From NCBI GenBank assembly GCA_003232725.1, contig QIJH01000218.1, positions 3,429 through 67,428 of the forward strand: DNA of 64,000 bases, read 5' to 3'. This stretch comes from Chromatiaceae bacterium. GTDB taxonomy: Bacteria; Pseudomonadota; Gammaproteobacteria; SZUA-140. Position 1 is the first letter of the stretch. Each line of letters starts with the position of its first letter. The position numbers and the translations under genes are program-made. Shown in pieces: positions 6,486-42,477 of the stretch. Below the pieces are notes generated by a model. The model was not told the origin of the DNA, ran no database searches, and was given only the letters and a program-made list of their open reading frames with translations.

Positions 6486-7730
6486 CTACCCTCGCAATAT
6501 CTTTTCTATCGCGTCAACATCTGCCTGTGCTGCCTCCAGCACACGCAATGTCATCTTTGGGCCAAGCCTGCCAAGCGAAAATTTAGTAAATGAAGGAACC
6601 GCATCGATTGCCGGATATTCCGCCATCTTCGGTGTATCGATAAAACTATAGAGCTGTGCCAATACAACCACATCGCAATAGTCAGGCTTAGGACCACCAT
6701 CGCGATACCAATCATGTGAACCACGCACCACATCGATCACATCCAGATCAAAATCCCAACGCCTCAACACTTGCACGCCCACCTCACAACTCAACTCTTC
6801 AATCACCTGACTCAACATTGCGGCATCTTCAACAAGCTCTGGGTATTTTGCCGCATAGTTAATCACAGGCAGCGCGCCAATGTTATATACTAACCCAGCT
6901 AACATCGCGCGATCTTCATCAAGCCCTCGCCCATGGCGTGAAATTACCGCACACAATGCAGCCAAGTGAGTACTACGCTGCCACGCTTTACGCATAAACG
7001 CTTGAAGCAATGGCGATTCGCTTTCGAATAACTGTTGTAATGAACAACCAATCACGAGATCCCGTGTCACCTGCAATCCCATTCGAGAGACTGCCATCTG
7101 GCAAGTGGTAATCGCCGATTTACCACGATACATAGGACTATTTGCCACCTTCAACAGACGTCCTGCCAACGGCGGGTCAGCCATCACGATCCGTGCCACT
7201 TCAGAAACATCAGACCCTTTATCCTTGACCGCAACCTGCACTTGCAGTGCGATATCAGGCAGACTGGGGATTTTAAGTTTACTGGCTTTTGAATCACGTT
7301 CAATATCGGCCATCAAATGCTCAATCAACGCCGCCTTATCGAGCGAAATATTGCCATCTATCTTATCTGGCGGTGGTGCATCACCCAGCGCCTTTCTCAC
7401 CTCATCATCACTCAAACGAAAAACAACCACTCGACTGCTAGCGCGAATCGTCCATTGGCAAGGCTTAGTGAAACTCAGCGGCAATTTAGCCTTATCAGTG
7501 TTTGCGCTCACCACCTCATCATCACGACCAGGCGCCACCATAGAGACATCGCCTGACACCAGAAAATAAGTCCAGGGCTCATTCGAACCGTGATGCGCGA
7601 TGGTCTCACCTGCTAGCAGCGTCTCAAAATAACTATCCCGAGAGAGCTGCAGTAACGCCACTGCATCAAGTTTATCCAGCGGGGAAAAGATGCCCATTAT
7701 GGCTGGATTGACCAGCTTATCCGTCTTCAT
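6486..7730 (-). CDS. cyclic-nucleotide-binding domain + HDOD domain signalling protein
   Basis: N-terminal cNMP-binding-like beta-barrel (ETIAHHGSNEPWTYFLVSGDVSMV). C-terminal HDOD-like helical domain (LPDIALQVQVAVKDKGSDVSEVARIVMADPPLAGRLLKVANSPMY...). Confidence 0.75.
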   Translation of the reverse strand: MKTDKLVNPAIMGIFSPLDKLDAVALLQLSRDSYFETLLAGETIAHHGSNEPWTYFLVSGDVSMVAPGRDDEVVSANTDKAKLPLSFTKPCQWTIRASSRVVVFRLSDDEVRKALGDAPPPDKIDGNISLDKAALIEHLMADIERDSKASKLKIPSLPDIALQVQVAVKDKGSDVSEVARIVMADPPLAGRLLKVANSPMYRGKSAITTCQMAVSRMGLQVTRDLVIGCSLQQLFESESPLLQAFMRKAWQRSTHLAALCAVISRHGRGLDEDRAMLAGLVYNIGALPVINYAAKYPELVEDAAMLSQVIEELSCEVGVQVLRRWDFDLDVIDVVRGSHDWYRDGGPKPDYCDVVVLAQLYSFIDTPKMAEYPAIDAVPSFTKFSLGRLGPKMTLRVLEAAQADVDAIEKILRG

Positions 7731-32216: not shown

Positions 32217-33173
32217 TTGCAGTCAAGACGAAAAATGCGTGACCAAAATGAAATGGAAATTGATGATTCCGTCTATAAAACACTCCTGGAATCGACAAAT
32301 GCAATTCCATGGAAGATCGACTGGCAGAGCAAAAAGTTTACTTATATCGGCCCACAAATTGAATCCTTACTCGGGTGGTCAACATCAAGCTGGCACAGCG
32401 TTAACGACTGGGTTGAACGCATGCATCCTGACAACAGAGAATCTGTGGTTAATTTTTGCATTGCTCAATCACAGGCAGGCAACGACCATGAAGTGGATTA
32501 CCGCGCCCGAACAAAGGATGGCGGCTACATCTGGATTCGAGATGTCGTTCATGTCATTCGTAAAAATAACGAAGTTGAATCAATCATCGGCTTCATGTTT
32601 GATATTAGCGAACGAAAGAAAATTGAAGAGAAACTCATTCACCTACAAAAAGAACTCGAAGAACTCTCTTATAAAGACGCCCTCACCAACATCGCAAACC
32701 GCCGCATGTTCGATTCCATTCTCAAACGAGAATGGGCCAGCGCACAACGAAACCAGCAACCGATCGCACTCATCCTGCTAGATATCGACTTCTTTAAAGA
32801 GTACAACGATCACTACGGGCACATCATGGGTGACGACTGCCTGAAACAGGTCGCCAGGATATTAAGTAACGTCGCAACCAGGCCGCGAGACTTTGTGGCG
32901 CGCTTTGGCGGCGGGGAATTTGTGCTCGTTCTCTCTGATACGGATGAGGCATCAGCAATCAAAATCGCTGAAGAATGCCGCCGCGAAATCACTCAACATG
33001 CCATTCCTCACGCACAGTCAACTATCGGCCAAATACTCACCATTAGTGCAGGTGCGGGTGCCATCACACCATTAAAAAACGCTTGTCAAAAATATTTCAT
33101 CAGGCAAATCGACACCCTGCTCTATAAAGCGAAACTTCGCGGCAGGAATTGCGTTATCCACAAAGCATCATGA
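32217..33173 (+). CDS. PAS-domain protein with degenerate GGDEF domain (RFGGGEF)
   Basis: PAS fold (LLESTNAIPWKIDWQSKKFTYIGPQIESLLGW...DGGYIWIRDVV) then GGDEF domain (LTNIANRRMFDSIL...LILLDIDFFKEYNDHYGHIMGDDCLKQVA...ARFGGGEFVLVL). The signature is GGGEF rather than GG[DE]EF. Confidence 0.8.
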   Translation: MQSRRKMRDQNEMEIDDSVYKTLLESTNAIPWKIDWQSKKFTYIGPQIESLLGWSTSSWHSVNDWVERMHPDNRESVVNFCIAQSQAGNDHEVDYRARTKDGGYIWIRDVVHVIRKNNEVESIIGFMFDISERKKIEEKLIHLQKELEELSYKDALTNIANRRMFDSILKREWASAQRNQQPIALILLDIDFFKEYNDHYGHIMGDDCLKQVARILSNVATRPRDFVARFGGGEFVLVLSDTDEASAIKIAEECRREITQHAIPHAQSTIGQILTISAGAGAITPLKNACQKYFIRQIDTLLYKAKLRGRNCVIHKAS

Positions 33174-33496: not shown

Positions 33497-34510
33497 ATGA
33501 AATACCCAATTGCTGGCATCGTTTTACTGGCATCTACGCCAGCACTCGCGTTAGACGCCATCCCCGACAGCTTTCCAACACCAATGGACAACCCAATCAG
33601 CAACGCCAAAGTAGAACTCGGCAAGCAGCTCTTTTTTGATCCGCGCCTTTCGATTGATGGCACCGTATCCTGCAACTCATGCCACAACGTGATGGCGAGC
33701 GGCACCGATAGCCGCCCTACTTCTGTTGGTGTTAACGGCCAACGCGGCGGACGTAATGCACCGACCGTGTGGAATGCTGCATTCCTTAGCACCCAGTTCT
33801 GGGATGGCCGCGCCGCGACACTGGAAGAGCAGGCAAAAGGACCACCTTTAAACCCAATCGAGATGGGCATGCCAAATGCACAGGCGGTGGTTGATCGGCT
33901 CGAAAGCATTCCCGGTTACAAGGCACAATTTAATGCCATCTTCGGCGCGGTCTCTTACGACAACATGGCAAAAGCAATTGCCAGCTATGAGCGCACACTG
34001 ATTACCATTAACAGCCCGTTTGATCGTCACATGAAAGGTGATAAAACAGCAATGTCTGACAAAGCGATCAAAGGCATGAAGCGTTTCAATACCATTGGCT
34101 GCTCTGGCTGTCACAACGGCGTTAACTTTGCGGGGCCTGCACTTGCCACCGGTACTGGTTTCTTCCAGAAATTTCCACTGTTTAACAACCCGCTTATCGC
34201 TAAATACAACTTGGCAAAAGACAAAGGGCGCTATGAAGTAACCCAGGACAACGCCGACATCAACACCTGGCGTGTGCCATCACTACGTAACATCGCCACC
34301 ACCGCACCTTACTTTCACAACGGCGCAGTTAAAACCCTTGAGGAAGCGGTACATGTAATGGCAACTAGCCAGCTTGATAAAAAATTAAGTGATGCTGAAA
34401 TCAGCGAAATCGTTGCTTTCCTGGAATCCCTCACGGGTGAGTTTCCAGCCCAGACTATGCCTAGACTTCCTGGCATTACGGGTAGCAGCCTCGTAGGTTC
34501 AATCAAGTAA
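33497..34510 (+). CDS. ccp: di-haem cytochrome c peroxidase (CcpA/MauG family)
   Basis: Signal peptide; two CxxCH motifs (CNSCH, CSGCH); ...FFDPRLS...GRNAPTVWNAAF...FWDGRA...TAPYFHNGAV conserved CCP residues. Confidence 0.9.
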   Translation: MKYPIAGIVLLASTPALALDAIPDSFPTPMDNPISNAKVELGKQLFFDPRLSIDGTVSCNSCHNVMASGTDSRPTSVGVNGQRGGRNAPTVWNAAFLSTQFWDGRAATLEEQAKGPPLNPIEMGMPNAQAVVDRLESIPGYKAQFNAIFGAVSYDNMAKAIASYERTLITINSPFDRHMKGDKTAMSDKAIKGMKRFNTIGCSGCHNGVNFAGPALATGTGFFQKFPLFNNPLIAKYNLAKDKGRYEVTQDNADINTWRVPSLRNIATTAPYFHNGAVKTLEEAVHVMATSQLDKKLSDAEISEIVAFLESLTGEFPAQTMPRLPGITGSSLVGSIK

Positions 34511-34536: not shown

Positions 34537-34562
34537 AGCCGACCTTCATGGTCGGCTTTTTC
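34537..34562 (+). terminator. Rho-independent terminator after ccp
   Basis: agccgacc-ttcat-ggtcggct hairpin followed by TTTTTC. Confidence 0.7.
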
Positions 34563-35056: not shown

Positions 35057-35797
35057 GTGAATAAAAACCAGACAACACAGCAATCAGCCACGGATGAAAT
35101 CAATGATTTTATCGAACCTTGCTTTCTCAATAGCAATCGTTGGATAAACACACCAGTCAATAACAACATCGCAAAAATAGCACATTACCTGTCACATAAA
35201 ATTTCCAAAATACCACTGGATTTGACAAGCCATGCGCAACGGATTTCTCTTTACCGCCACCAAGATGATGCTGAAAGTACATATGCAGCACTATTAGATC
35301 TTTTCCTTGTACTTGGCAACAAAGGCCTGCCATTACGCAAGCGCCTACTACGGCAAGCAGCATCTGTCATCAGTGCAGAAAACTATGGTTTTTTATCAAG
35401 CACGCTGCCAACGGCATTGGTCATCACATGCAATACACCACTACCACACCTTTCCGCACTAAGTCTTGGTAGAACCAGAGAAAAAGAGATCATACGGAAA
35501 ACCGATGACGAGCAGTCAAAAAAAAAGGAAGCACCACTATTGATCGTGCGCGACCTACTTAATTCAGGACAAATATCACAGGCACAGTCAATTCTGGAAC
35601 TCGCACTGCTAGCCGCACCGGATAACAATGATCTTAGCAACGAACTACTGCAGATCTATCATCATACTCACGATAGAAGCGGCTGCATTCAAATGCTTAA
35701 AAAATTGTCATCAGCTGCATTAGCAGGCCGAGAGAAATGGGCAGAACTGATTATCACACTCGACCAGGACAGCACGGAGCGCTCACTCAGTGCATAA
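35057..35797 (+). CDS. hypothetical protein, helical/TPR-like C-terminus (first gene of candidate GTPase operon)
   Basis: 246 aa ORF with GTG start and no clear SD. C-terminal ...AQSILELALLAAPDNNDLSNELLQIYHHT... resembles a TPR/FimV-C-like helical hairpin. No family assigned. Confidence 0.4.
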   Translation: MNKNQTTQQSATDEINDFIEPCFLNSNRWINTPVNNNIAKIAHYLSHKISKIPLDLTSHAQRISLYRHQDDAESTYAALLDLFLVLGNKGLPLRKRLLRQAASVISAENYGFLSSTLPTALVITCNTPLPHLSALSLGRTREKEIIRKTDDEQSKKKEAPLLIVRDLLNSGQISQAQSILELALLAAPDNNDLSNELLQIYHHTHDRSGCIQMLKKLSSAALAGREKWAELIITLDQDSTERSLSA

Positions 35798-36680
35798 ACA
35801 GAAAACAACCAACCCTATTAGAGTGACCACACTCGGTCTCGATGAGCGCTCACAAGAGGTGCTGAGAATGGCTTTTTCAAGCGTCGCAAAGGGCGAGTGC
35901 GTTTTATCCGATACTGCCTCAGCAGATGTTGGTCTCTGTAATATGGATAGCCACAACGCAAATACATTATGGAGTAAAAATAAAACACACTATCCCGAGC
36001 GCCCTATGGTTGTGATTTCAGTCAAAAATCCACAACTTGAAAATTGCATGTATGTAGCAAAACCGATTAACATCACCATGCTTGTCGATGCAATCAAGGA
36101 TGCCTTTAGTAGCAGCGCCATGCAGCATTCAGTAGCTCATGCAGTCAATGGAATGCATGCCAGTACACAGGAGCTTCATCCGCTACCCCAGCAACCAGAG
36201 AAACACATTCAAGAGACATCCATGGGTTCTCCTCTAACACCTGAGGAACAATGGAATGATGAAGGCCACTCGAGTATCAACTACTACTCTCCAGCAGATT
36301 ACCTGCAAGAAGAGCTACAAAACTCTGCCACACAGGCAAGTGAGAGAAATCTATCCGCACAATACTCAGTCAAATTGAACGACACCTGGCTACACATCAC
36401 TATAGATCCAATTCATAATAAAGTGGTCTCTGAAATCAGCGATCAAATACTTGAGTCTCTGTGTACAACACCACGCTACTGTATTGAAACCAAATCAAAA
36501 TTTCTTAGCAAAAACAGATCCCACTTTGATGTCTACCGAGGAGACAAACCCTATCATGAATGCACCATCGCTCAATTCATTTGGAAGGTAGCGCTCTGGA
36601 CATCTGCTGGAAGACTATCAAAAGAGATGAGCCCATCAACACTGGCCGAATTTAACACGCCTGACACGCTCAAAAAATGA
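35790..36680 (+). CDS. receiver (REC)-like domain protein with unknown C-terminal domain
   Basis: N-terminal ~110 aa have CheY-like topology: IRVTTLGLDERSQEVLRMAF...ADVGLCNMDSHNA (Asp at the phospho-acceptor position)...PMVVISVKNP...YVAKPINITMLVDAIKDAF (KP motif). The acidic pocket is partly degenerate. Overlaps the previous gene by 8 nt. Confidence 0.45.
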   Translation: MHKQKTTNPIRVTTLGLDERSQEVLRMAFSSVAKGECVLSDTASADVGLCNMDSHNANTLWSKNKTHYPERPMVVISVKNPQLENCMYVAKPINITMLVDAIKDAFSSSAMQHSVAHAVNGMHASTQELHPLPQQPEKHIQETSMGSPLTPEEQWNDEGHSSINYYSPADYLQEELQNSATQASERNLSAQYSVKLNDTWLHITIDPIHNKVVSEISDQILESLCTTPRYCIETKSKFLSKNRSHFDVYRGDKPYHECTIAQFIWKVALWTSAGRLSKEMSPSTLAEFNTPDTLKK

Positions 36681-36942
36681 TATCAGGATAGCAGCGCTGC
36701 TCTCCGAACAGCCAGCTGCACCAGCCCTTATTTCCAAGGTACTTGGGATACCAATATCTCAAGTCTTTTCTTTTTACGCGGCAGCACATGCACTCAATTT
36801 AGCCATGCCAGTCGTGAATGTGACAAAAAAACCAGCGTTTAATATTCAACAAAAAAGCAAACATCATTCATTATTTAGCAAAATACTCGAAAAATTTGCT
36901 GGTTAACACTAAACCACCTACCCATAAAGACACCCTTCGATC

Positions 36943-37491
36943 ATGCCTGGAAACAATCATAAAATAATATTCACTGGCCCTGTGGGCGCAGGAAAGACAG
37001 CAGCAATTAGCGCCATTAGTGATATTGCCGTTTTAAAAACGGATGAAAATGCACAGGACATGACCAAGAAACGCAAGCAGACAACAACCGTAGCGCTAGA
37101 TTATGGGCTATTAAAACTAGGGGAAGGGGAAGGGGAACGCATTCACCTCTATGGCACACCCGGCCAGGAACGTTTCGACTTCATGTGGGACATATTAACC
37201 AATGGTGGCCTTGGCCTAATCCTACTACTTGACAACTCGCGCTCAACCCCTTTTAAAGACATGAGTTTTTTTCTTAACGCATTTCGTGATTTTATTTGCG
37301 ATAACAAAATGGTCATTGGGGTTACGCACATGGAATACAACGAAACATCAAAAATAGAGTCGTATCATCAACAGTTACATAAACATGGCATCAAAGCACC
37401 CATACTAGAAATTGATGCGCGAGAAAAAAACGATGTCGAAACGCTAGTCAAAACACTTCTTTACTCACTTGACCCATGGCTGGGGCAGTAA
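36943..37491 (+). CDS. small Ras-like GTPase, MglA-like
   Basis: 182 aa. P-loop KIIFTGPVGAGKTAAIS; switch I Thr (TTTVALDYG); switch II HLYGTPGQERF, like MglA's TVPGQ variant of DxxGQ. Size and organisation like MglA/CvnD-type GTPases. No clear canonical NKxD. Confidence 0.7.
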   Translation: MPGNNHKIIFTGPVGAGKTAAISAISDIAVLKTDENAQDMTKKRKQTTTVALDYGLLKLGEGEGERIHLYGTPGQERFDFMWDILTNGGLGLILLLDNSRSTPFKDMSFFLNAFRDFICDNKMVIGVTHMEYNETSKIESYHQQLHKHGIKAPILEIDAREKNDVETLVKTLLYSLDPWLGQ

Positions 37492-38177
37492 TGAGTCAAT
37501 ACGAACTGATCGATACAAGGTTTGTCTTACCATCACCCGCAGGCACATATTACGCCATATCAAACCATCAAGAAGAGCGCTCCAGAGGGCTGCTACTTGC
37601 TTTAATGACACAAGCAAACAGTCAAAGAATATCCACAGAGACGCTTTCGATTTGGCTAGACGATGACAACATTGAAACGTCATTGGCACTGCTTCACAAG
37701 ATTCAACAATTAGGCTGGCTTAGACCAGATGATGAACAATCATCGGCCCCGACCGGGGCACTTGAAGAAATAATACCACCGCTACTGGCAACATTATGCA
37801 ACACAGAAAAAACACTACTTGCCGATCACCAGGGCTTTACACTCGCCGCTCACGGATTTACTCACGAAGCAGCCGAAGAGCTATCGGCTCTCAGTGCAGA
37901 CCTCATCGCTCTGAGATTACGGCACGGAAGTTTGCTCACTAAAAACCTTAAACTTAATACGCAAGCCATCGGCCTTATTGATGCCGCAGGCAATAGCCAG
38001 CTAGGGTTCTGGCCACTGCATATTGGCAAGCACTGCTTTACATTGGTAATGAGTGGCATACCGCAATTTAATCAAACCAGTTTTACCAATTTAATTTGGC
38101 TACTAACGACTCGTTATGGATCAAATGACAATGCTGCCAATTTGTCAATTCACGAAATATTTTACACAGATAAATAG
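37491..38177 (+). CDS. hypothetical protein, possible tandem roadblock/longin-like partner (translationally coupled to GTPase)
   Basis: ATG overlaps the GTPase stop (TAATG). 228 aa. Second half (LLATLCNTEKTLLADHQGFTLAAHGF...AIGLIDAAGNSQLGFWPLHIGKHCFTLVMSG) has a roadblock-like alternation. Confidence 0.45.
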   Translation: MSQYELIDTRFVLPSPAGTYYAISNHQEERSRGLLLALMTQANSQRISTETLSIWLDDDNIETSLALLHKIQQLGWLRPDDEQSSAPTGALEEIIPPLLATLCNTEKTLLADHQGFTLAAHGFTHEAAEELSALSADLIALRLRHGSLLTKNLKLNTQAIGLIDAAGNSQLGFWPLHIGKHCFTLVMSGIPQFNQTSFTNLIWLLTTRYGSNDNAANLSIHEIFYTDK

Positions 38178-38239
38178 ACTGAGCGACAACTTATTCAATA
38201 TCATCTACCACAAAAATTTTGAAACAAGGAGTCAATATA

Positions 38240-38602
38240 ATGCGAGCTGACATTTTAAATTCTATTCTATCTGAGTTGAACGGCACTTCAGCTGAAATAG
38301 AAGCATCAGCCATCTTATCGACAGATGGCCTCATGATGGCATCAATGCTGCCTGCTGGAATGGATGAAGATCGAGTGGGTGCAATGGCTGCGGCCATGCT
38401 CTCGCTCGGCGATAGAACATCTGAAGAACTCGCACGCGGTGGACTTGAACAAGTACTGATAAAAGGAGAAAAAGGCTACGTTTTGATGACGCATGCGGGT
38501 GATGAATCAGTACTATCAGTACTTGCCAAACCAAGCGCGCGCCTTGGGCTAATATTTTTAGATGTAAAACGTGCTGCAGAATCAATTGAGAAGCTGGTTT
38601 AA
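38240..38602 (+). CDS. Roadblock/LC7 domain protein (MglB-like)
   Basis: MRADILNSILSELNGTSAEIEASAILSTDGLMMASMLPAGMDEDRVGAMAAAMLSLGDRTSEELARGGLEQVLIKGEKGYVLMTHAGDESVLSVLAKPSARLGLIFLDVKRAAE is a textbook Roadblock/LC7 signature. AAGGAG RBS 8 nt upstream. Confidence 0.78.
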   Translation: MRADILNSILSELNGTSAEIEASAILSTDGLMMASMLPAGMDEDRVGAMAAAMLSLGDRTSEELARGGLEQVLIKGEKGYVLMTHAGDESVLSVLAKPSARLGLIFLDVKRAAESIEKLV

Positions 38603-38626: not shown

Positions 38627-39097
38627 ATGAAAGACATGATGCCTGACAATATTTCCGGCGAGTACCAAGAACATCTATTCAGCTACCATGATGGTACTCA
38701 GCGAAAAGCCCTTTTCACCAACATCGAAACACAACTACCAGAAGGCCGCCTGATTGTTTCTCGCACAAATACCGATGGCATCATTATTGATGTAAACCAG
38801 CCATTTATTGAAATGTCCGCTTATCATAAAGATGAGTTAATCGGCCAACCTCATTATATTCTTCGCCATCCAGATATGCCTGCCGCCGCATTTAGCGATC
38901 TCTGGAAAATGGTTCAACAGCGAAATAAATGGCATGGATACGTCAAAAATCTTCGCAAAGACGGTGGCTTTTATTGGGTATATGCGACCGTTATCGCAAA
39001 CATTCGGAAGGGTGACATCACTGGCTTTACATCTGTTCGCCGCCGTGCCTCGCGCGCTAAAATTAATGAAGCCGAAATTCTTTATCAAACTTTATAA
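38627..39097 (+). CDS. stand-alone Aer-type (FAD-binding) PAS domain protein
   Basis: RLIVSRTNTDGIIIDVNQPFIEMSAYHKDELIGQPHYILRHPDMPAAAFSDLWKMVQQRNKWHGYVKNLRKDGGFYWVYATVIANIRKGDITGFTSVRRRAS closely parallels the Aer N-terminal PAS (GQPHN.VRHPDMP.AAF.D.W...G.PW.G.VKNR.K.G..YWV.A.V.P). No transmembrane or output domain. Confidence 0.8.
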   Translation: MKDMMPDNISGEYQEHLFSYHDGTQRKALFTNIETQLPEGRLIVSRTNTDGIIIDVNQPFIEMSAYHKDELIGQPHYILRHPDMPAAAFSDLWKMVQQRNKWHGYVKNLRKDGGFYWVYATVIANIRKGDITGFTSVRRRASRAKINEAEILYQTL

Positions 39098-39111: not shown

Positions 39112-39858
39112 ATGACCCACAACTTCACCGTCAGTCCAGACTTTAATCCAGGCCATATATCTGGTTGGTACATCTTCAATACATGGCTTCAACGCACCAT
39201 CAATGAAGAGCTCCACCTGGAACTCTACAATAGCGCTAGCGAACAACGAAAAGCGATCGCTGATGACCGGGTAGATTTAATTTATGCCAACCCTTATGAC
39301 GCGACAGCACTGGTAAGAGACAAGGGGTTTTTCCCTGTTGCACGTGCTGACAACAAAACAGACGAGGCCATCATCGCTGTCAATCATGAAAGCCCAATCC
39401 TCAATGTTGAACAACTCACAGATGGCACCAGAATTTCCAGCACCGATGACCCGGACGTACGCATGATGTGCATGATCATGCTTGAGCCTGCAGGGTTAAA
39501 TAAAAGTAACACCTCTACCACACAACGTGATGCTTACATTTTGATTGCCAAAGATCTTTTAAAAAACGACGCCGACGTTGGTTTCTTTCTCGAAGAGACA
39601 TACAACGAACTCTCAGACATGACAAAAAAACAATTAAGACCTATTGTGCACAGCCAAATTCATGTCATCCACCATCTACTGCTTGTCGGTCCTAAATTAG
39701 CACACAAAAAAGATGACATACAATCATCACTCCTTTCAATGGCTGATGACTCAAAAGGAGTCGGCGTATTAAAAAACCTGAACTTCGAACGCTGGGTAGC
39801 GGTTGAGCAGGAAGAAGCCGAATTCATGATTGACTTAATGGACACATTAGCCGAATAA
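39112..39858 (+). CDS. PhnD/SsuA-like (phosphonate-binding family) periplasmic-binding-fold protein lacking a signal peptide
   Basis: 248 aa. DLIYANPYDATALVRDKGFFPVARAD...AIIAV pattern of Phosphonate-bd/PBP type 2. N-terminus MTHNFTVSPDFNPGH... is not a signal peptide. Confidence 0.6.
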   Translation: MTHNFTVSPDFNPGHISGWYIFNTWLQRTINEELHLELYNSASEQRKAIADDRVDLIYANPYDATALVRDKGFFPVARADNKTDEAIIAVNHESPILNVEQLTDGTRISSTDDPDVRMMCMIMLEPAGLNKSNTSTTQRDAYILIAKDLLKNDADVGFFLEETYNELSDMTKKQLRPIVHSQIHVIHHLLLVGPKLAHKKDDIQSSLLSMADDSKGVGVLKNLNFERWVAVEQEEAEFMIDLMDTLAE

Positions 39859-39880: not shown

Positions 39881-41008
39881 CTATTGCTTAGATGCCTCTT
39901 TTTTAGAGTCGCGCAACCGCTGAAGTTTTTCAAGTATACGTTCCGCCCGACCAATATGCTCTAGCGCCTGCTCGTTGTCGGGTGCCAGTGCTAGCGCATT
40001 TTCCCAGGTACCTATTGCCTTCATATACTGTCCCTCTCCGTAATACTCGACACCCAGGGCAATACTCTCTTTCACCTGTTTATCCAGAAGAAAACTCAAC
40101 TGCTGTGCAAGCTCAATCTCACTCTCATTCAAATTACCTAACAACTTCAACCTGACAACATAATCTAATGCCCTAGTCAGCTCATTATTATTGACAGCCT
40201 TAAGCAAAGACACATTGAGAATTTTTTGCATCTTCCGTCTACTTTCAATCACAATTTGTTGCTGTCTGCGCTCATTTTCCACCTGGGACTGTAACTTTTC
40301 ATTCTCGATTTCTTGCTGTTGTTTCGCCAATAGCAGCTGACTCTCCACGACTGTTTGCTTAAGCTCGCCTATCATCGGCACTGGATTAAGCTGCCAGGCA
40401 AGGCTAAGCAACTCTTCCGCATGGAGGAAATCATCCTGTTCCAAGGCTGCTCGTCCATGTTCAGCAAGCAATTTAGCAACTTTCTTTGATTTATCTTTAT
40501 CTCTTTTCCAGCGGCCCTCTTTTAGCCAACTACCTGGGGTAATCAACGCCAACTCTTCCTGAACACTAATCGTATTACTCAACCACTCCGCTTGCATCAC
40601 TAACAAGTCCAATTCCAGTGCCGCAACCCGAATATTCTGTTTAAAATGCAGCGCCTGAAATGCTGAGTTAATCTTTTCACTATCTGGAATATTATTTAAT
40701 GCGGTTTGGTAGTATCGCTTGGCACGATACCACTCTCCTGCCTTCTCAAGCGCCCTGCCCTCCTCCAGTGTCTGCTGCTCATATATAACTGCCTGCTTAT
40801 CAATACCAGCGATTAACGCATTCACACTTGAATAGTCAGCGTGCGACTCAGGCACATGAGAAAGCACCACTTGCGCTTGTGCATACCGATCCCCCTCGAC
40901 AAGAGAGTCCACCTTTTCTAATACATTAGACGAACGCGCATCCATATACGCACAACCCTGTACAAATATCACCAACAAAATGAGAAAGGCTAATTTCACA
41001 TTTTTCAT
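39881..41008 (-). CDS. TPR-repeat lipoprotein
   Basis: Signal peptide with lipobox (LILLVIFVQGC). Multiple TPR-like repeats (AQ..LS...Y..AL, GEWYRAKRYYQTALNN, GQYMKAIGTWENALALAPDN). 4-nt overlap with the upstream cyclase gene. Confidence 0.65.
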   Translation of the reverse strand: MKNVKLAFLILLVIFVQGCAYMDARSSNVLEKVDSLVEGDRYAQAQVVLSHVPESHADYSSVNALIAGIDKQAVIYEQQTLEEGRALEKAGEWYRAKRYYQTALNNIPDSEKINSAFQALHFKQNIRVAALELDLLVMQAEWLSNTISVQEELALITPGSWLKEGRWKRDKDKSKKVAKLLAEHGRAALEQDDFLHAEELLSLAWQLNPVPMIGELKQTVVESQLLLAKQQQEIENEKLQSQVENERRQQQIVIESRRKMQKILNVSLLKAVNNNELTRALDYVVRLKLLGNLNESEIELAQQLSFLLDKQVKESIALGVEYYGEGQYMKAIGTWENALALAPDNEQALEHIGRAERILEKLQRLRDSKKEASKQ

Positions 41009-42477
41009 GTCGATACGGATACGTCGCCAGTATTCACAACCGTCGATATTGCATCATCGATCATCGCCTGCTGTTTTTCATCAACACCGCTCACATGGTA
41101 AGTCACCAGCGCTTCTTTTTTTCCTTTTAGTGAAATTTTCTTAAAGCGAGTACTAACGATACCCTGAGATTGCAGTGTAACATTCAGTTCATCACTAATT
41201 AGAATTTCGCCAGCATCCGCCGCAGAGGCAAGGCGTGATGCAGTATTAACCGCATCACCAACGACCGTATAGTCCATTCGCTCGGCAGCGCCCATATTAC
41301 CAGCCAGCATCATGCCACTATTAATACCAATTCTAAAACGAACTTGCGTCAAATTATCATTCGCCCTCTGGCGGTTAACTATTTTAACTAGCTTTTGAAT
41401 CGTAATCGCACATGCAGCCGCATGAAAGCTATGCTTGGCATCATCCTCCGGCACACCAAAGACAAGCATCGCACAATCGCCTATGTATTTATCAATATGC
41501 CCACCATAGCAATGTGCTGCCTGCGCAATAATACTAAAGTACTCATTCAGAAGACTATTCACCTGCTCCGGATGTAGCTCTTCCGAAAGCCGCGTAAAAC
41601 CAACGATATCTGCAAACAAAACACTCGCCTCAACATGATGCCCTCCCAACTTCACCTGGTTCAGGTTAGACAATACCGCCTTAGCTACTTTCGGTGAAAC
41701 GTAACGTGAAAATGTCTGCTCCACTTGCTCTTTACGTAACAGCCCTTCCGTCATTTCATTCATCGACTGCATCAGTGAACCCAACTCATCTTTGCGCTGA
41801 TCATTAAGGCGAACATGATAATCACCAGCCGAAATTGCACGGCCAGCATTAATCAATTGATGTATAGGGCGAGTTAAACGCTTACCCAATATAAAAGATG
41901 CTATAAAACCCAGAATCACTAACAACAATGTCGCGCCACCTACCGTGCGAATGGTCTCTTGCTGTGCCAACGTTCTTAAGCGTTGATCAAAAGTAATGAG
42001 CACATAACCTGTCGTCACATCCTTAAAAAACACCGGCTTGAAAAATGAAACCATATCAAGCGGCTCAGGAGCAACGCTATTTTCCTGCCATTCCAGTTTA
42101 ATTACACGCCCTAAGGCAGTGGCAATACGGTGGTCGTCCGGCACTGCACCCTTTTTCACCACCAGCTCTTTGTTCTCATTGTAAAGAGCTGCGCCAAGAA
42201 TCCCAGCTTCACCTGCAAGACTGTTCACCACAATCTCAAGATTAAGGTGATCATTGGCTAATAAGGGTTCACGGGAAAAGCCGGCCATCAACCTTAAAAC
42301 CGTATTTCCCGACTCACTCACCTGCTGCTCAAGAATATTACTTTGGTTGTGGACAATGAACAGCCCCAACAAACTCATCCCGCAACTAATCAATAAAGTA
42401 AAGACTAATGAGAGTTTATAGGCAATAGGGAAGTATGCCGGCAAAAATGCTGTCAGATTTTGGCGTAACTTTTTCAT
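41005..42477 (-). CDS. membrane sensor adenylate/guanylate cyclase (2TM periplasmic sensor - HAMP - class III cyclase)
   Basis: Two TM segments flanking a ~150 aa periplasmic region, HAMP (ILGKRLTRPIHQLINAGRAISAGDYHVRL), CHD cyclase domain (VLFADIVGFTRLSEELHPEQVNSLLNEYF...IGDCAMLVFGVP...RIGINSGMMLAGNMGAAERMDYTVVGDAVNTASRL). Confidence 0.85.
   Translation of the reverse strand: MKKLRQNLTAFLPAYFPIAYKLSLVFTLLISCGMSLLGLFIVHNQSNILEQQVSESGNTVLRLMAGFSREPLLANDHLNLEIVVNSLAGEAGILGAALYNENKELVVKKGAVPDDHRIATALGRVIKLEWQENSVAPEPLDMVSFFKPVFFKDVTTGYVLITFDQRLRTLAQQETIRTVGGATLLLVILGFIASFILGKRLTRPIHQLINAGRAISAGDYHVRLNDQRKDELGSLMQSMNEMTEGLLRKEQVEQTFSRYVSPKVAKAVLSNLNQVKLGGHHVEASVLFADIVGFTRLSEELHPEQVNSLLNEYFSIIAQAAHCYGGHIDKYIGDCAMLVFGVPEDDAKHSFHAAACAITIQKLVKIVNRQRANDNLTQVRFRIGINSGMMLAGNMGAAERMDYTVVGDAVNTASRLASAADAGEILISDELNVTLQSQGIVSTRFKKISLKGKKEALVTYHVSGVDEKQQAMIDDAISTVVNTGDVSVST

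Follow-up and report, generated by a model that had tools for sequence, protein, structure and literature searches.

Organization of the locus

The PAS gene, here called F (38627-39097, plus strand), lies in a window of 64,000 nucleotides, the whole stretch of DNA that was analysed. It encodes a stand-alone PAS protein of the Aer type (FAD-PAS cluster 14) with 156 amino acids. The open reading frame starts with ATG and ends with TAA, and a ribosome-binding site (AGGAAA) is located 8 nt upstream of the start codon. The usual home of F is a seven-gene operon with the order A-B-C-D-E-F-G.

Gene A (35057-35797, plus strand), the conserved first gene of the operon, encodes 246 amino acids with weak TPR-like similarity (TPR_19 at 8.5e-4, under the Pfam cut-off), and a weak homologue was found in Neisseria. 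Gene B (35790-36906, plus strand) corresponds to the "DUF" protein of Group 3 MglA systems and features a receiver-like N-terminus, a variable linker, and a C-terminal winged-helix-like domain. Its alignment showed conserved D-E, D53, S77, and K91-P92 positions, together with weak matches to Response_reg, HTH_20, and MarR. A resemblance of its C-terminus to CvnC (DUF742) was suspected and is not claimed here, there being no Pfam match. Within the window, B is frameshifted by a 17-nt deletion: positions 35790-36680 encode 296 amino acids, and the last 89 amino acids are encoded in another frame (36637-36906). The frameshift may mean that this organism has an impaired system, or it may reflect an assembly error.

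Gene C (36943-37491, plus strand) encodes a small GTPase of the MglA family and of the Group 3 type. Its motifs are the P-loop GPVGAGKT, the G3 motif GTPGQERF, in which Thr replaces Asp, a degenerate G4 motif (THME), and the G5 motif DAR (EIDAR); a homologue search intended to reach distant relatives of C gave close relatives only. Gene D (37476-38177, plus strand) encodes a second, atypical MglB-like protein, composed of an N-terminal domain of about 90 residues and a C-terminal Roadblock-like domain. Weak matches to Robl_LC7 were present in 19 of the 25 members of its alignment and matches to LAMTOR5 in 7 of them, and a sequence search of D against PDB chains gave nothing useful. Gene E (38219-38602, plus strand) encodes a Roadblock/LC7 protein of the MglB type (Pfam Robl_LC7, 2.3e-17). 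Its true start is likely the ATG at 38240, giving 120 amino acids as in the homologues, and its PDB matches were 7f8m (6e-26) and CvnB5 3leq (1e-10). E stops 24 nt before F, which confirms the position directly downstream of a Roadblock gene that a first-pass annotation of this DNA had reported. Downstream of F, gene G (39112-39858, plus strand) encodes a cytoplasmic binding protein of the PhnD/PtxB/AioX fold with 248 amino acids and without a signal peptide.

No match to HATPase, HisKA, or DUF742 was detected in the operon proteins, and a search for ABC transporter genes in the operon found none. Scanning the inside of the operon for promoters and terminators gave nothing above the shuffled background. 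The sole notable site of that scan, a terminator-like hairpin, was located upstream of gene A (34537-34557).

F is a single-domain PAS protein

All Pfam matches of F (PAS_3 at 1.4e-12, PAS_9, and PAS) fell inside residues 45-134, and no further domain was detected. The protein consists of a β-hairpin extension (residues 1-30), an Aer-like N-cap (31-42), the PAS core (43-140), and a C-terminal helix (143-154). According to the alignment and the AF2 model (pLDDT 93.6), the N-terminal hairpin is particular to the F family. The top solved relative was the PAS domain of Escherichia coli Aer (8DIK, E 3.6e-30), which aligned without gaps to residues 34-156 of F. Superimposition of the AF2 model on 8dik_A gave 0.9 Å over 126 columns, with a target TM of 0.96 and 42% identity.

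[quoted passage not shown] The motif that it had pointed to, GQPHYILRHPDMPAAAF...W...VKNLRKDGGFYWV, was found in F, and the absence of HAMP, MCP, and membrane segments held true, none being detected in the protein. Because the gene starting at 39112 is in a different frame and the length of the family is constant, no in-frame fusion to a downstream domain was missed.

The F family is large, with no fewer than 567 genomic relatives. Over the 120 best hits, the length ranged from 154 to 185 amino acids, with nearly all homologues between 156 and 163. Family members carry the label "aerotaxis receptor" from the source annotation pipelines. Comparison of F with its nearest relative (locus L003) gave a dN/dS of 0.15. 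F is thus a real single-domain PAS protein on which purifying selection acts.

G is a cytoplasmic protein with a phosphonate-binding fold

Pfam assigned G to the Phosphonate-bd family (PF12974, a two-lobe fold) at 1.8e-33. In the AF2 model (pLDDT 93.7), the first β-strand is formed by residues 3-7, so there is no signal peptide, and all 120 homologues listed had 245 to 258 amino acids. The top Foldseek matches were PtxB, ArrX, PhnD, and AioX, with a TM of about 0.82, and a search of G against PDB chains by sequence gave nothing useful.

The oxyanion ligands of E. coli PhnD are presumably Y47, Y93, S127-S129, and H157. When the two proteins were compared in a profile alignment, which was weak (6 bits), S127-T128-S129 of PhnD aligned with D115-V116-x of G, and F42, D84/E85, and Y142 of G were located at other ligand positions of PhnD. 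Judging from these residues, the oxyanion site has apparently been lost in G. Since G is cytoplasmic and seems to lack this site, it is not a component of phosphonate transport. Its closest multidomain relatives are STAS fusions, which places G in a clade of cytoplasmic signalling proteins with the "phosphonate-binding" fold, whose members are mislabelled in genome annotation as substrate-binding proteins of ABC transporters.

The F-G pair is accessory to a Group 3 GTPase core

We surveyed 82 loci related to F, 47 of which had at least 5 kb of sequence on each side. G was located at most 67 nt downstream of F in all 80 testable loci; the gap had a median of 13 nt, and in 11 loci the start and stop codons overlapped. 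In 70 of the 82 loci, the Roadblock gene E preceded F by no more than 1 kb. Among the 47 loci with long flanks, E was present in 45, C and D in 42 each, and A in 39. The complete order A-B-C-D-E-F-G was repeated in Methylococcales, Thiotrichales, Sedimenticolaceae, Rhodocyclales, and other groups. In about 80 species, F was always paired with G, usually within a Ras-like GTPase operon, and the two genes stayed joined when the operon was permuted.

E accompanied the pair in split operons (L045, L070, L075, L063, and L073), and L063 and L073 have E-F-G only. In L035, L069, and L076, F-G stood alone among housekeeping genes, and at least three loci with the pair had no GTPase gene inside 10 kb, so that F-G may act on different or further targets. 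Genomes with such an isolated pair include Methyloglobulus morosus KoM1 and Ca. Methylomicrobium oryzae RS1. Neither F nor G was present in the systems of Neisseria (L083), which has A-E, and Ralstonia (L084), which has C, E, and a weak D; both were found through a plasmid collection that included mislabelled Neisseria chromosomes and a Ralstonia megaplasmid. Because the core occurs in Neisseria and Ralstonia without the pair, and the pair occurs alone in three loci, F-G is an accessory module of the Group 3 core.

Co-variation between the operon genes was examined by partial mirror-tree (partial Mantel) analysis, in which shared history and rate effects act as confounders for genes of the same operon. 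The partial Mantel r for F-G was 0.41, and 0 of 2000 permutations were as high. Residual co-variation was significant for G-D (0.42) and, although weak, also for F-E (0.18, p ~0.005). The GTPase C showed significant residual co-variation with D (0.52) and with E (0.42), and the partial correlations of F-C and F-D were not significant. Rosetta-stone fusions of F-G, F-E, or G-D were sought among the 120 best homologues of F, the 120 best homologues of G, and 150 G representatives, and none was found; the long relatives of G carried STAS and not PAS domains. The first-pass annotation had proposed that F signals to the PhnD-like protein or to the GTPase module. That route fits the constant presence of G, the frequencies of the Roadblock and GTPase genes, and the residual co-variation, which was significant for F-G and weaker for F-E.

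As judged from sequence comparison, we consider that the F-G pair probably combines a soluble FAD-PAS redox sensor with a PhnD-fold protein and serves as an accessory input to the Group 3 MglA GTPase system, with a probability of roughly 0.58. The pair could instead be an autonomous cytoplasmic two-protein sensor whose target (e.g., a kinase, a cyclase, or a regulator) is encoded elsewhere, its location beside the GTPase genes reflecting shared regulation. Such independence would agree with the loci in which the pair stands alone among housekeeping genes or is accompanied only by E, with the lack of significant F-C and F-D correlations, and with the STAS partner-switching domains, as opposed to GTPase parts, to which G relatives are fused. 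However, most loci with long flanks (42 of 47) contain C and D, in one tight and co-directional operon, E is kept with F-G through rearrangements, and the residual co-variation of G-D and F-E is significant; we therefore regard an autonomous sensor as rather unlikely.

An accessory input to a GTPase also has to be weighed against a role of F in energy taxis, in which it would act, like CetB, together with a CetA-like HAMP-MCP transducer in the membrane whose gene is located elsewhere. CetB proteins are likewise Aer-like FAD-PAS proteins that stand alone and are similar in size to F, one of them (CetB2) binds FAD, no solved structure is closer to F than that of Aer, and the label given to the family by annotation pipelines points the same way. 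Nevertheless, no MCP signature was found in the whole window, an MCP-like ORF was present within 10 kb of F in only 2 of the 82 loci and in neither adjoined F in the manner of cetBA, and the neighbour of F is invariably G and not a HAMP protein. In addition, the family has its own N-terminal hairpin, and the β-sheet position equivalent to Aer N98, which we take to be a HAMP contact, is Thr in 115 of 120 family members. These counts, together with the absence of any HAMP or MCP gene from the operon, agree with the first-pass view that F has no transducer partner there. A CetA-like MCP was sought as a partner of F in the window and in all loci, and none adjoined F. A taxis function is thus improbable, and F probably feeds redox information into a bacterial G-protein switch instead of serving chemotaxis.

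The putative flavin pocket of F is conserved

Residue conservation was counted over 120 members of the F family with 57-100% identity. The equivalents of Aer R57/H58/D60, the FAD-contacting residues that the first-pass annotation had singled out, are R80/H81/D83 in F, and the flavin contacts H53/W70/N85/R115 in the Aer crystal structure correspond to H76/W93/N108/R138. Each of these residues was kept in 110-120 of the 120 members; H76, W93, N108, and R138 were found in all of them and R80 in 117. F contains the Trp/His/Asn triad by which FAD-PAS cluster 14 is defined. The substitutions S28G and A99V stabilise the isolated Aer PAS domain, and F has the matching residues G51 (120/120) and V122, whose column was nearly invariant in a 32-member alignment. 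From these residues we infer that F binds FAD.

The invariance or near-invariance of the flavin-contact residues over the 120 members implies selection on the pocket. This pattern argues against F being a PAS fold without flavin, or with another ligand, that acts as a structural adaptor between the Roadblock protein E and G, a role that we consider very improbable even though Aer PAS, when isolated, needs stabilising substitutions to bind FAD well. F might also signal laterally to a HAMP domain in the adjacent cyclase I, a convergently encoded TM-HAMP adenylate/guanylate cyclase (41005-42477, minus strand, 1.9 kb downstream of F). Such signalling would resemble the PAS-to-HAMP mechanism of Aer and CetAB but is hardly credible: I is encoded on the opposite strand, orthologues of I (4e-286) and of its neighbour, the TPR-lipoprotein H (5e-175), occur only in the nearest relative (L003), and among the 47 loci with long flanks H was found in 1 and I in 4, the latter otherwise as weak, domain-level matches (e.g., 1e-08 in L020), so this cyclase was rejected as a partner.

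Proposed mechanism

If F-G is an accessory input to the GTPase system, the pair would engage both Roadblock/MglB-type proteins differently depending on the redox state of the flavin in F and, possibly, on a small ligand of G, with G contacting D and F contacting E. D and E would in turn set the nucleotide state of GTPase C, and the REC-wHTH protein B would relay the output, which is probably transcriptional; A is a putative scaffold. The scheme starts from established features, namely the PAS fold and conserved flavin contacts of F, the obligatory F-G linkage, the operon architecture, and the accessory nature of the pair, and it predicts that F is occupied by FAD, which proteins are in physical contact, in which direction the signal travels, and what the output is.

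A more far-reaching possibility, which we put forward tentatively, is that bacterial Ras-like GTPases have, in the E-F-G trio, a hitherto unrecognised sensory front end, in which redox state and a metabolite would gate the GAP/GEF action of D-E. Here, the degenerate PhnD-fold protein G would bind a cytoplasmic metabolite, the Roadblock heterodimer D-E would act on the MglA-type GTPase, and the GTPase would then govern the REC-wHTH regulator. If true, this would constitute a kinase-independent, G-protein-based pathway for energy or nutrient sensing, and by analogy it would recall the eukaryotic Rag-Ragulator system, in which subunits with the Roadblock fold link sensors with small GTPases.

Many beta- and gammaproteobacteria have Group 3 MglA systems, for example Neisseria, Xanthomonas, Stenotrophomonas, and Acidithiobacillus. 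The subset with a flavin sensor provides the first concrete, testable hypothesis for what a Group 3 G-protein switch senses and includes genetically tractable methanotrophs (Methylomonas and Methylomicrobium). Our literature search for functional studies of MEALZ_246x, Metme_1347, NMB0476-9, XAC4010, or PDB 7F8M found none.

Comparison with known systems

F resembles the E. coli Aer PAS domain in fold (0.9 Å), sequence (39-42% identity), N-cap, C-terminal helix, and flavin-contact residues. However, Aer is a membrane receptor of 506 amino acids whose PAS domain passes its signal to HAMP and MCP domains of the same polypeptide, whereas F is a soluble protein of 156 amino acids with an extra N-terminal β-hairpin and without HAMP or MCP. 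The midpoint potential of Aer is near -290 mV. CetB (from Campylobacter jejuni, and CetB2 from Magnetospirillum) is, like F, a stand-alone Aer-type PAS protein, so that this protein type is in itself already known. CetB transfers its flavin redox signal to a partner that is encoded by another gene. The gene cetB overlaps or directly adjoins the gene of this partner, the TM-HAMP-MCP protein CetA, whereas F adjoins the gene of a cytoplasmic PhnD-fold protein in a small-GTPase operon. With this, the partners of stand-alone Aer-type PAS proteins would extend past chemoreceptors.

G shares the two-lobe fold of AioX, ArrX, PhnD, and PtxB (TM about 0.8). These four are periplasmic oxyanion binders, whereas G has no signal peptide and no adjoining ABC genes. 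AioX and ArrX are sensors of arsenite and arsenate, and the fold can therefore serve signalling and not transport.

Actinobacterial GTPase conservons (CvnA-D) have in common with this operon an MglA-type GTPase, a Roadblock protein, and a small stand-alone accessory protein formed by a sensor domain, which in the case of CvnF8 is a GAF domain. Conservons contain the histidine kinase CvnA and the DUF742 protein CvnC, and their GAF sensor acts on the kinase; in contrast, the operon of F has no kinase, and its sensor is a pair of a PAS protein and a binding protein.

The operon core corresponds to the Group 3 MglA systems, defined computationally in 2015 by Wuichet and Sogaard-Andersen (PMC4316618). 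Their layout is a DUF protein (REC-like plus wHTH), followed by MglA and two MglB proteins, and Metme_1347 and MEALZ_2464 (Methylomonas and Methylomicrobium) are listed as members (PMC4316618). B-C-D-E has this same layout, and GTPase C shares the TxxGQ G3 motif, the deviant G4, and the DAR G5. The published description of Group 3 includes neither a PAS nor a PhnD-like part (PMC4316618), and F-G is an addition to these systems in a subset of them.

Gene order around the PAS protein

F, the PAS protein encoded at 38627-39097 (+), has an ATG start preceded by an AGGAAA ribosome-binding site and a TAA end, and its dN/dS of 0.15 against the nearest relative identifies it as a real gene under purifying selection. 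The database search returned 4527 matching proteins, the best 120 of which were 60-100% identical to F, all single-domain, and 154-185 aa long (nearly all 156-163 aa, against 156 aa for F). At least 567 relatives were found in species-representative genomes, with hosts in Thiotrichaceae, Ca. Thiodiazotropha, Sedimenticola, Thiothrix, Thiomargarita, Neptuniibacter, Methylobacter, Methylomonas, Methylocaldum, Zoogloea and other Rhodocyclales, Competibacteraceae, and Gallionellaceae. Context loci were drawn from the 80 best of these relatives, and the neighbouring proteins of the window were searched against all ORFs of 82 related loci.

A gene for a PhnD-like protein, G (39112-39858, +; 248 aa, Phosphonate-bd PF12974), lay directly after F in all 80 loci with enough contig, at a gap of -11 to +67 nt (median 13 nt, 11 start/stop overlaps). 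The Roadblock/LC7 gene E (38219-38602, +) was located at most 1 kb upstream of F in 70 of the 82 loci. Of the 47 loci with at least 5 kb on either side, all had G, 45 had E, 42 each had the GTPase C (36943-37491, +) and the second Roadblock-type protein D (37476-38177, +), 39 had the weakly TPR-like A (35057-35797, +), and 29 had the fast-evolving REC-wHTH protein B (35790-36906, +). The usual order was A-B-C-D-E-F-G, as in Methyloterricola oryzae, and permuted operons still held E-F-G, namely E-F-G-A-(B)-C-D in Zoogloea and Ca. Methylophosphatis and A-D-E-F-G-B-C in Methylophaga. E-F-G stood alone in two loci (L063 and L073), and F-G alone amid housekeeping genes in Methyloglobulus morosus, Ca. 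Methylomicrobium oryzae, and a Chromatiaceae MAG. All five genes from A to E had homologues in Neisseria gonorrhoeae (54% identity for the GTPase), with no F- or G-like genes found downstream in that locus; in the Ralstonia solanacearum megaplasmid locus, C and E were present along with a weak D, and both F and G were missing. Because of these loci and of those with F-G only, the organization is one of nested modularity, F-G inside E-F-G inside A-G, and the F-G pair is accessory to the GTPase system. The solitary F-G pairs would suit an autonomous sensor with targets elsewhere, a reading that we consider possible but unlikely given how regularly E accompanies the pair.

In the gonococcal locus (L083 6992-7527), the GTPase homologue was split into overlapping ORFs (6992-7234 and 7159-7527) and B likewise looked fragmented, suggesting that the system is decaying in this organism. 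The record is a 2.17-Mb chromosome mislabelled as a plasmid in PLSDB.

The first-pass annotation had described F as a PAS domain with no transducer partner, and this was borne out: no MCP signature was detected within the window, and an MCP-like ORF occurred within 10 kb of F in just 2 of 82 loci. A role like that of CetB, the stand-alone Aer-like PAS partner of the TM-HAMP-MCP protein CetA, would require a distant MCP and is quite unlikely.

Fold and predicted flavin site of F

Pfam assigned PAS models alone (PAS_3, 1.4e-12; PAS_9; PAS), all inside residues 45-134, and NCBIfam gave only sub-threshold matches to PAS portions of bigger flavin/redox sensors such as NifL and YtvA. Among solved structures, F matched 8DIK, the PAS domain of E. 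coli Aer, best (E 3.6e-30); full-length Aer ranked next, ahead of MmoS and NifL. The alignment with Aer was gapless, F numbering being Aer numbering plus 23. The AlphaFold2 model, built from a family alignment of 32 sequences (mean pLDDT 93.6), superimposed on 8dik_A at 0.9 A over 126 columns (target TM 0.96, 42% identity), and the next structure matches were all flavin-binding PAS or LOV domains. The Pfam result and the single-domain homologues agree with the earlier view of F as a PAS domain only, and a missed in-frame fusion was discarded because the next gene is in another frame and homologue lengths are uniform. A conserved N-terminal extension of ~30 residues (consensus MxDMNPDDIxGEYRExTLxYHDGxxRKVL), which Aer lacks, was modelled confidently by AlphaFold2 as a beta-hairpin with strands 14-19 and 25-30.

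In the Aer PAS crystal structure, N85 contacts flavin N3/O4, H53 stacks, R115 contacts N5, R57 the pyrophosphate, and W70 and M69 the adenine (PMC9668731); a PAS-family survey defines the Aer-like FAD cluster 14 by Trp, His, and Asn (PMC10468136). Across 120 family members, H76, H81, W93, N108, and R138 of F were present in 120/120, the R80 column held R in 117 and K in 3, and the D83 column D in 110 and E in 8; L92 is a further counterpart of the Aer flavin contacts. Loss of flavin-contact residues was looked for, and these residues were kept in the family (n=120); that F is a flavin-less adaptor is very improbable. The Aer PAS domain on its own, along with its binding of FAD, has been stabilized by three substitutions, S28G, A65V, and A99V, and F matches two of them: Gly is native at Aer position 28 in 120/120 members, and Val (V122) occupies Aer position 99 in a column almost invariant among 32 aligned members. 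These residues fit a domain that evolved for stand-alone life.

The partner protein G

The AlphaFold2 model of G (pLDDT 93.7) opens with its first beta-strand right at the start, so a signal peptide is predicted to be absent. All 120 listed homologues were 245-258 aa long. Foldseek retrieved PtxB, ArrX, PhnD, AioX, and XAC2383 (TM ~0.82, 13-19% identity). AioX and ArrX are sensor partners, not transport proteins, and would thus provide a precedent for signalling by the G fold. In a weak profile alignment with E. coli PhnD (6 bits), Asp-Val-x of G fell on the Ser-Thr-Ser oxyanion loop, and the PhnD ligand residues Tyr, Tyr, and His were matched by Phe, Asp/Glu, and Tyr; phosphonate or phosphite binding by G therefore appears doubtful.

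A profile search of 1.8 billion representatives showed that the nearest multidomain relatives of G are cytoplasmic fusions of 367-665 aa, in which one to three N-terminal STAS (anti-sigma-antagonist) domains precede the PhnD-like domain (P0430, P0434, P0436, P0447, P0453, P0454, P0459, P0469, P0470, P0474, P0480, P0485, P0490, P0491, P0493, and P0496). W19, N23-T24, and D84-E85 of G also occur in these proteins. Their position as nearest relatives would make G a member of a cytoplasmic signalling clade of the PhnD fold, and the fusions point to a clade of partner-switching sensors within PF12974 that is annotated as transporter binding proteins. The database label 'ABC transporter substrate-binding protein' for G is misleading.

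The GTPase operon is a Group 3 MglA system

C is an MglA-family GTPase whose P-loop is GPVGAGKT and whose GTPGQERF motif has Thr where Asp is usual; its G4 is degenerate, and its G5 motif is DAR. E is a canonical Roadblock protein with the conservon protein CvnB5 among its best structural relatives. Its match to the solved 7F8M ('Robl_LC7 domain-containing protein', 120 aa; E 6e-26) was far better than those to MglB or CvnB5, and no paper naming this entry was found. D combines an N-terminal domain of ~90 aa with a Roadblock-like C-terminal domain (weak matches in its family to Robl_LC7 in 19/25 and LAMTOR5 in 7/25). In B, a receiver-like N-terminus in which the acidic pair, Asp, Ser, and Lys-Pro are conserved is joined through a variable linker to a conserved winged-helix-like C-terminus. 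In the window, a deletion of 17 nt compared with L003, the nearest relative, shifts the frame of B, leaving 296 aa (35790-36680) with the last 89 aa in another frame (36637-36906). This final portion is well conserved (88% identical to L003), and the frameshift could be an assembly error or recent decay into a pseudogene or split gene.

The operon core corresponds to the 'Group 3 MglA system' (DUF > MglA > MglB > MglB) defined computationally by Wuichet and Sogaard-Andersen, which is nearly confined to beta- and gammaproteobacteria, has a deviant G4, a DAR G5, and a REC-like plus wHTH 'DUF', and includes Methylomonas methanica Metme_1347 and Methylomicrobium alcaliphilum MEALZ_2464 (PMC4316618). 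Literature searches turned up no functional work on any locus of Group 3.

Co-variation and a proposed signalling path

Mirror-tree analysis of the 57 loci containing C, D, E, F, and G used partial correlations of pairwise distance matrices, each controlling for the remaining three proteins, and 2000 permutations of the labels. The highest values were obtained for C-D (partial r 0.52), C-E (0.42), G-D (0.42), and F-G (0.41), none of them reached in any of 2000 permutations; F-E gave 0.18 (p about 0.005), and F-C, F-D, G-C, G-E, and D-E were not significant (0.03-0.10). Because these correlations remove shared history and rate effects only in part, they are soft evidence; they suggest a chain from F-G to D and E and on to C, in line with the synteny hierarchy.

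We infer the following path, F-G to D/E to C to B. F would bind FAD and, like Aer and CetB, report on the redox or energy state of the cell, working in complex with G, which may contribute a metabolite input. The pair would engage the two Roadblock proteins (G with D, F with E), of which GAP or GEF-like control over the MglA-type GTPase C is expected. C would then act with B, perhaps also with A, most likely on transcription.

The operon surroundings are rich in second-messenger and redox genes. Upstream are a PAS_3-GGDEF diguanylate cyclase (32217-33173, +) and a secreted protein with two CxxCH motifs (33497-34510, +) that resembles a di-haem cytochrome c peroxidase. Downstream and convergent to the operon are a TPR lipoprotein (39881-41008, -; 375 aa) and a TM-HAMP class III adenylate/guanylate cyclase (41005-42477, -; 490 aa), overlapping by 4 nt. 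Orthologues of this convergent pair were found in L003 only; in the 47 long-flank loci the lipoprotein occurred in 1 and the cyclase had 4 matches, otherwise weak and domain-level (e.g. 1e-08 in L020). Both were therefore rejected as module members, and signalling from F to the HAMP-cyclase can practically be set aside.

Comparison with known systems

A stand-alone Aer-type FAD-PAS is already known in CetB of Campylobacter, and CetB2 of Magnetospirillum was shown to bind FAD and CetA (PMC2628428, PMC12442639). On Sulfuricurvum kujiense plasmid pSULKU01 (L086 3483-4665), a nap (periplasmic nitrate reductase) operon includes a gene for a further stand-alone Aer-like PAS protein, distinct from F (174 aa, 52% identical to F over residues 33-156). 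It comes immediately after napD and before a Crp/Fnr regulator gene, another non-chemotaxis setting for such sensors. Taken by itself, the observation is therefore of a known kind. Three things appear to be undescribed: the F family, marked by an N-terminal hairpin; the obligate pairing of F with a cytoplasmic PhnD-fold protein that probably lacks the oxyanion site; and the recruitment of this pair, as an accessory module, by Group 3 MglA GTPase systems, whose published description makes no mention of a PAS or PhnD-like component (PMC4316618). A published analogue of such an accessory sensor is the stand-alone GAF protein CvnF8, which in some actinobacterial conservons modulates the system's kinase and has been proposed as a sensory input (PMC13343842). 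With the F-G pair, a widespread, uncharacterised G-protein system of bacteria gains its first input hypothesis that can be put to the test.
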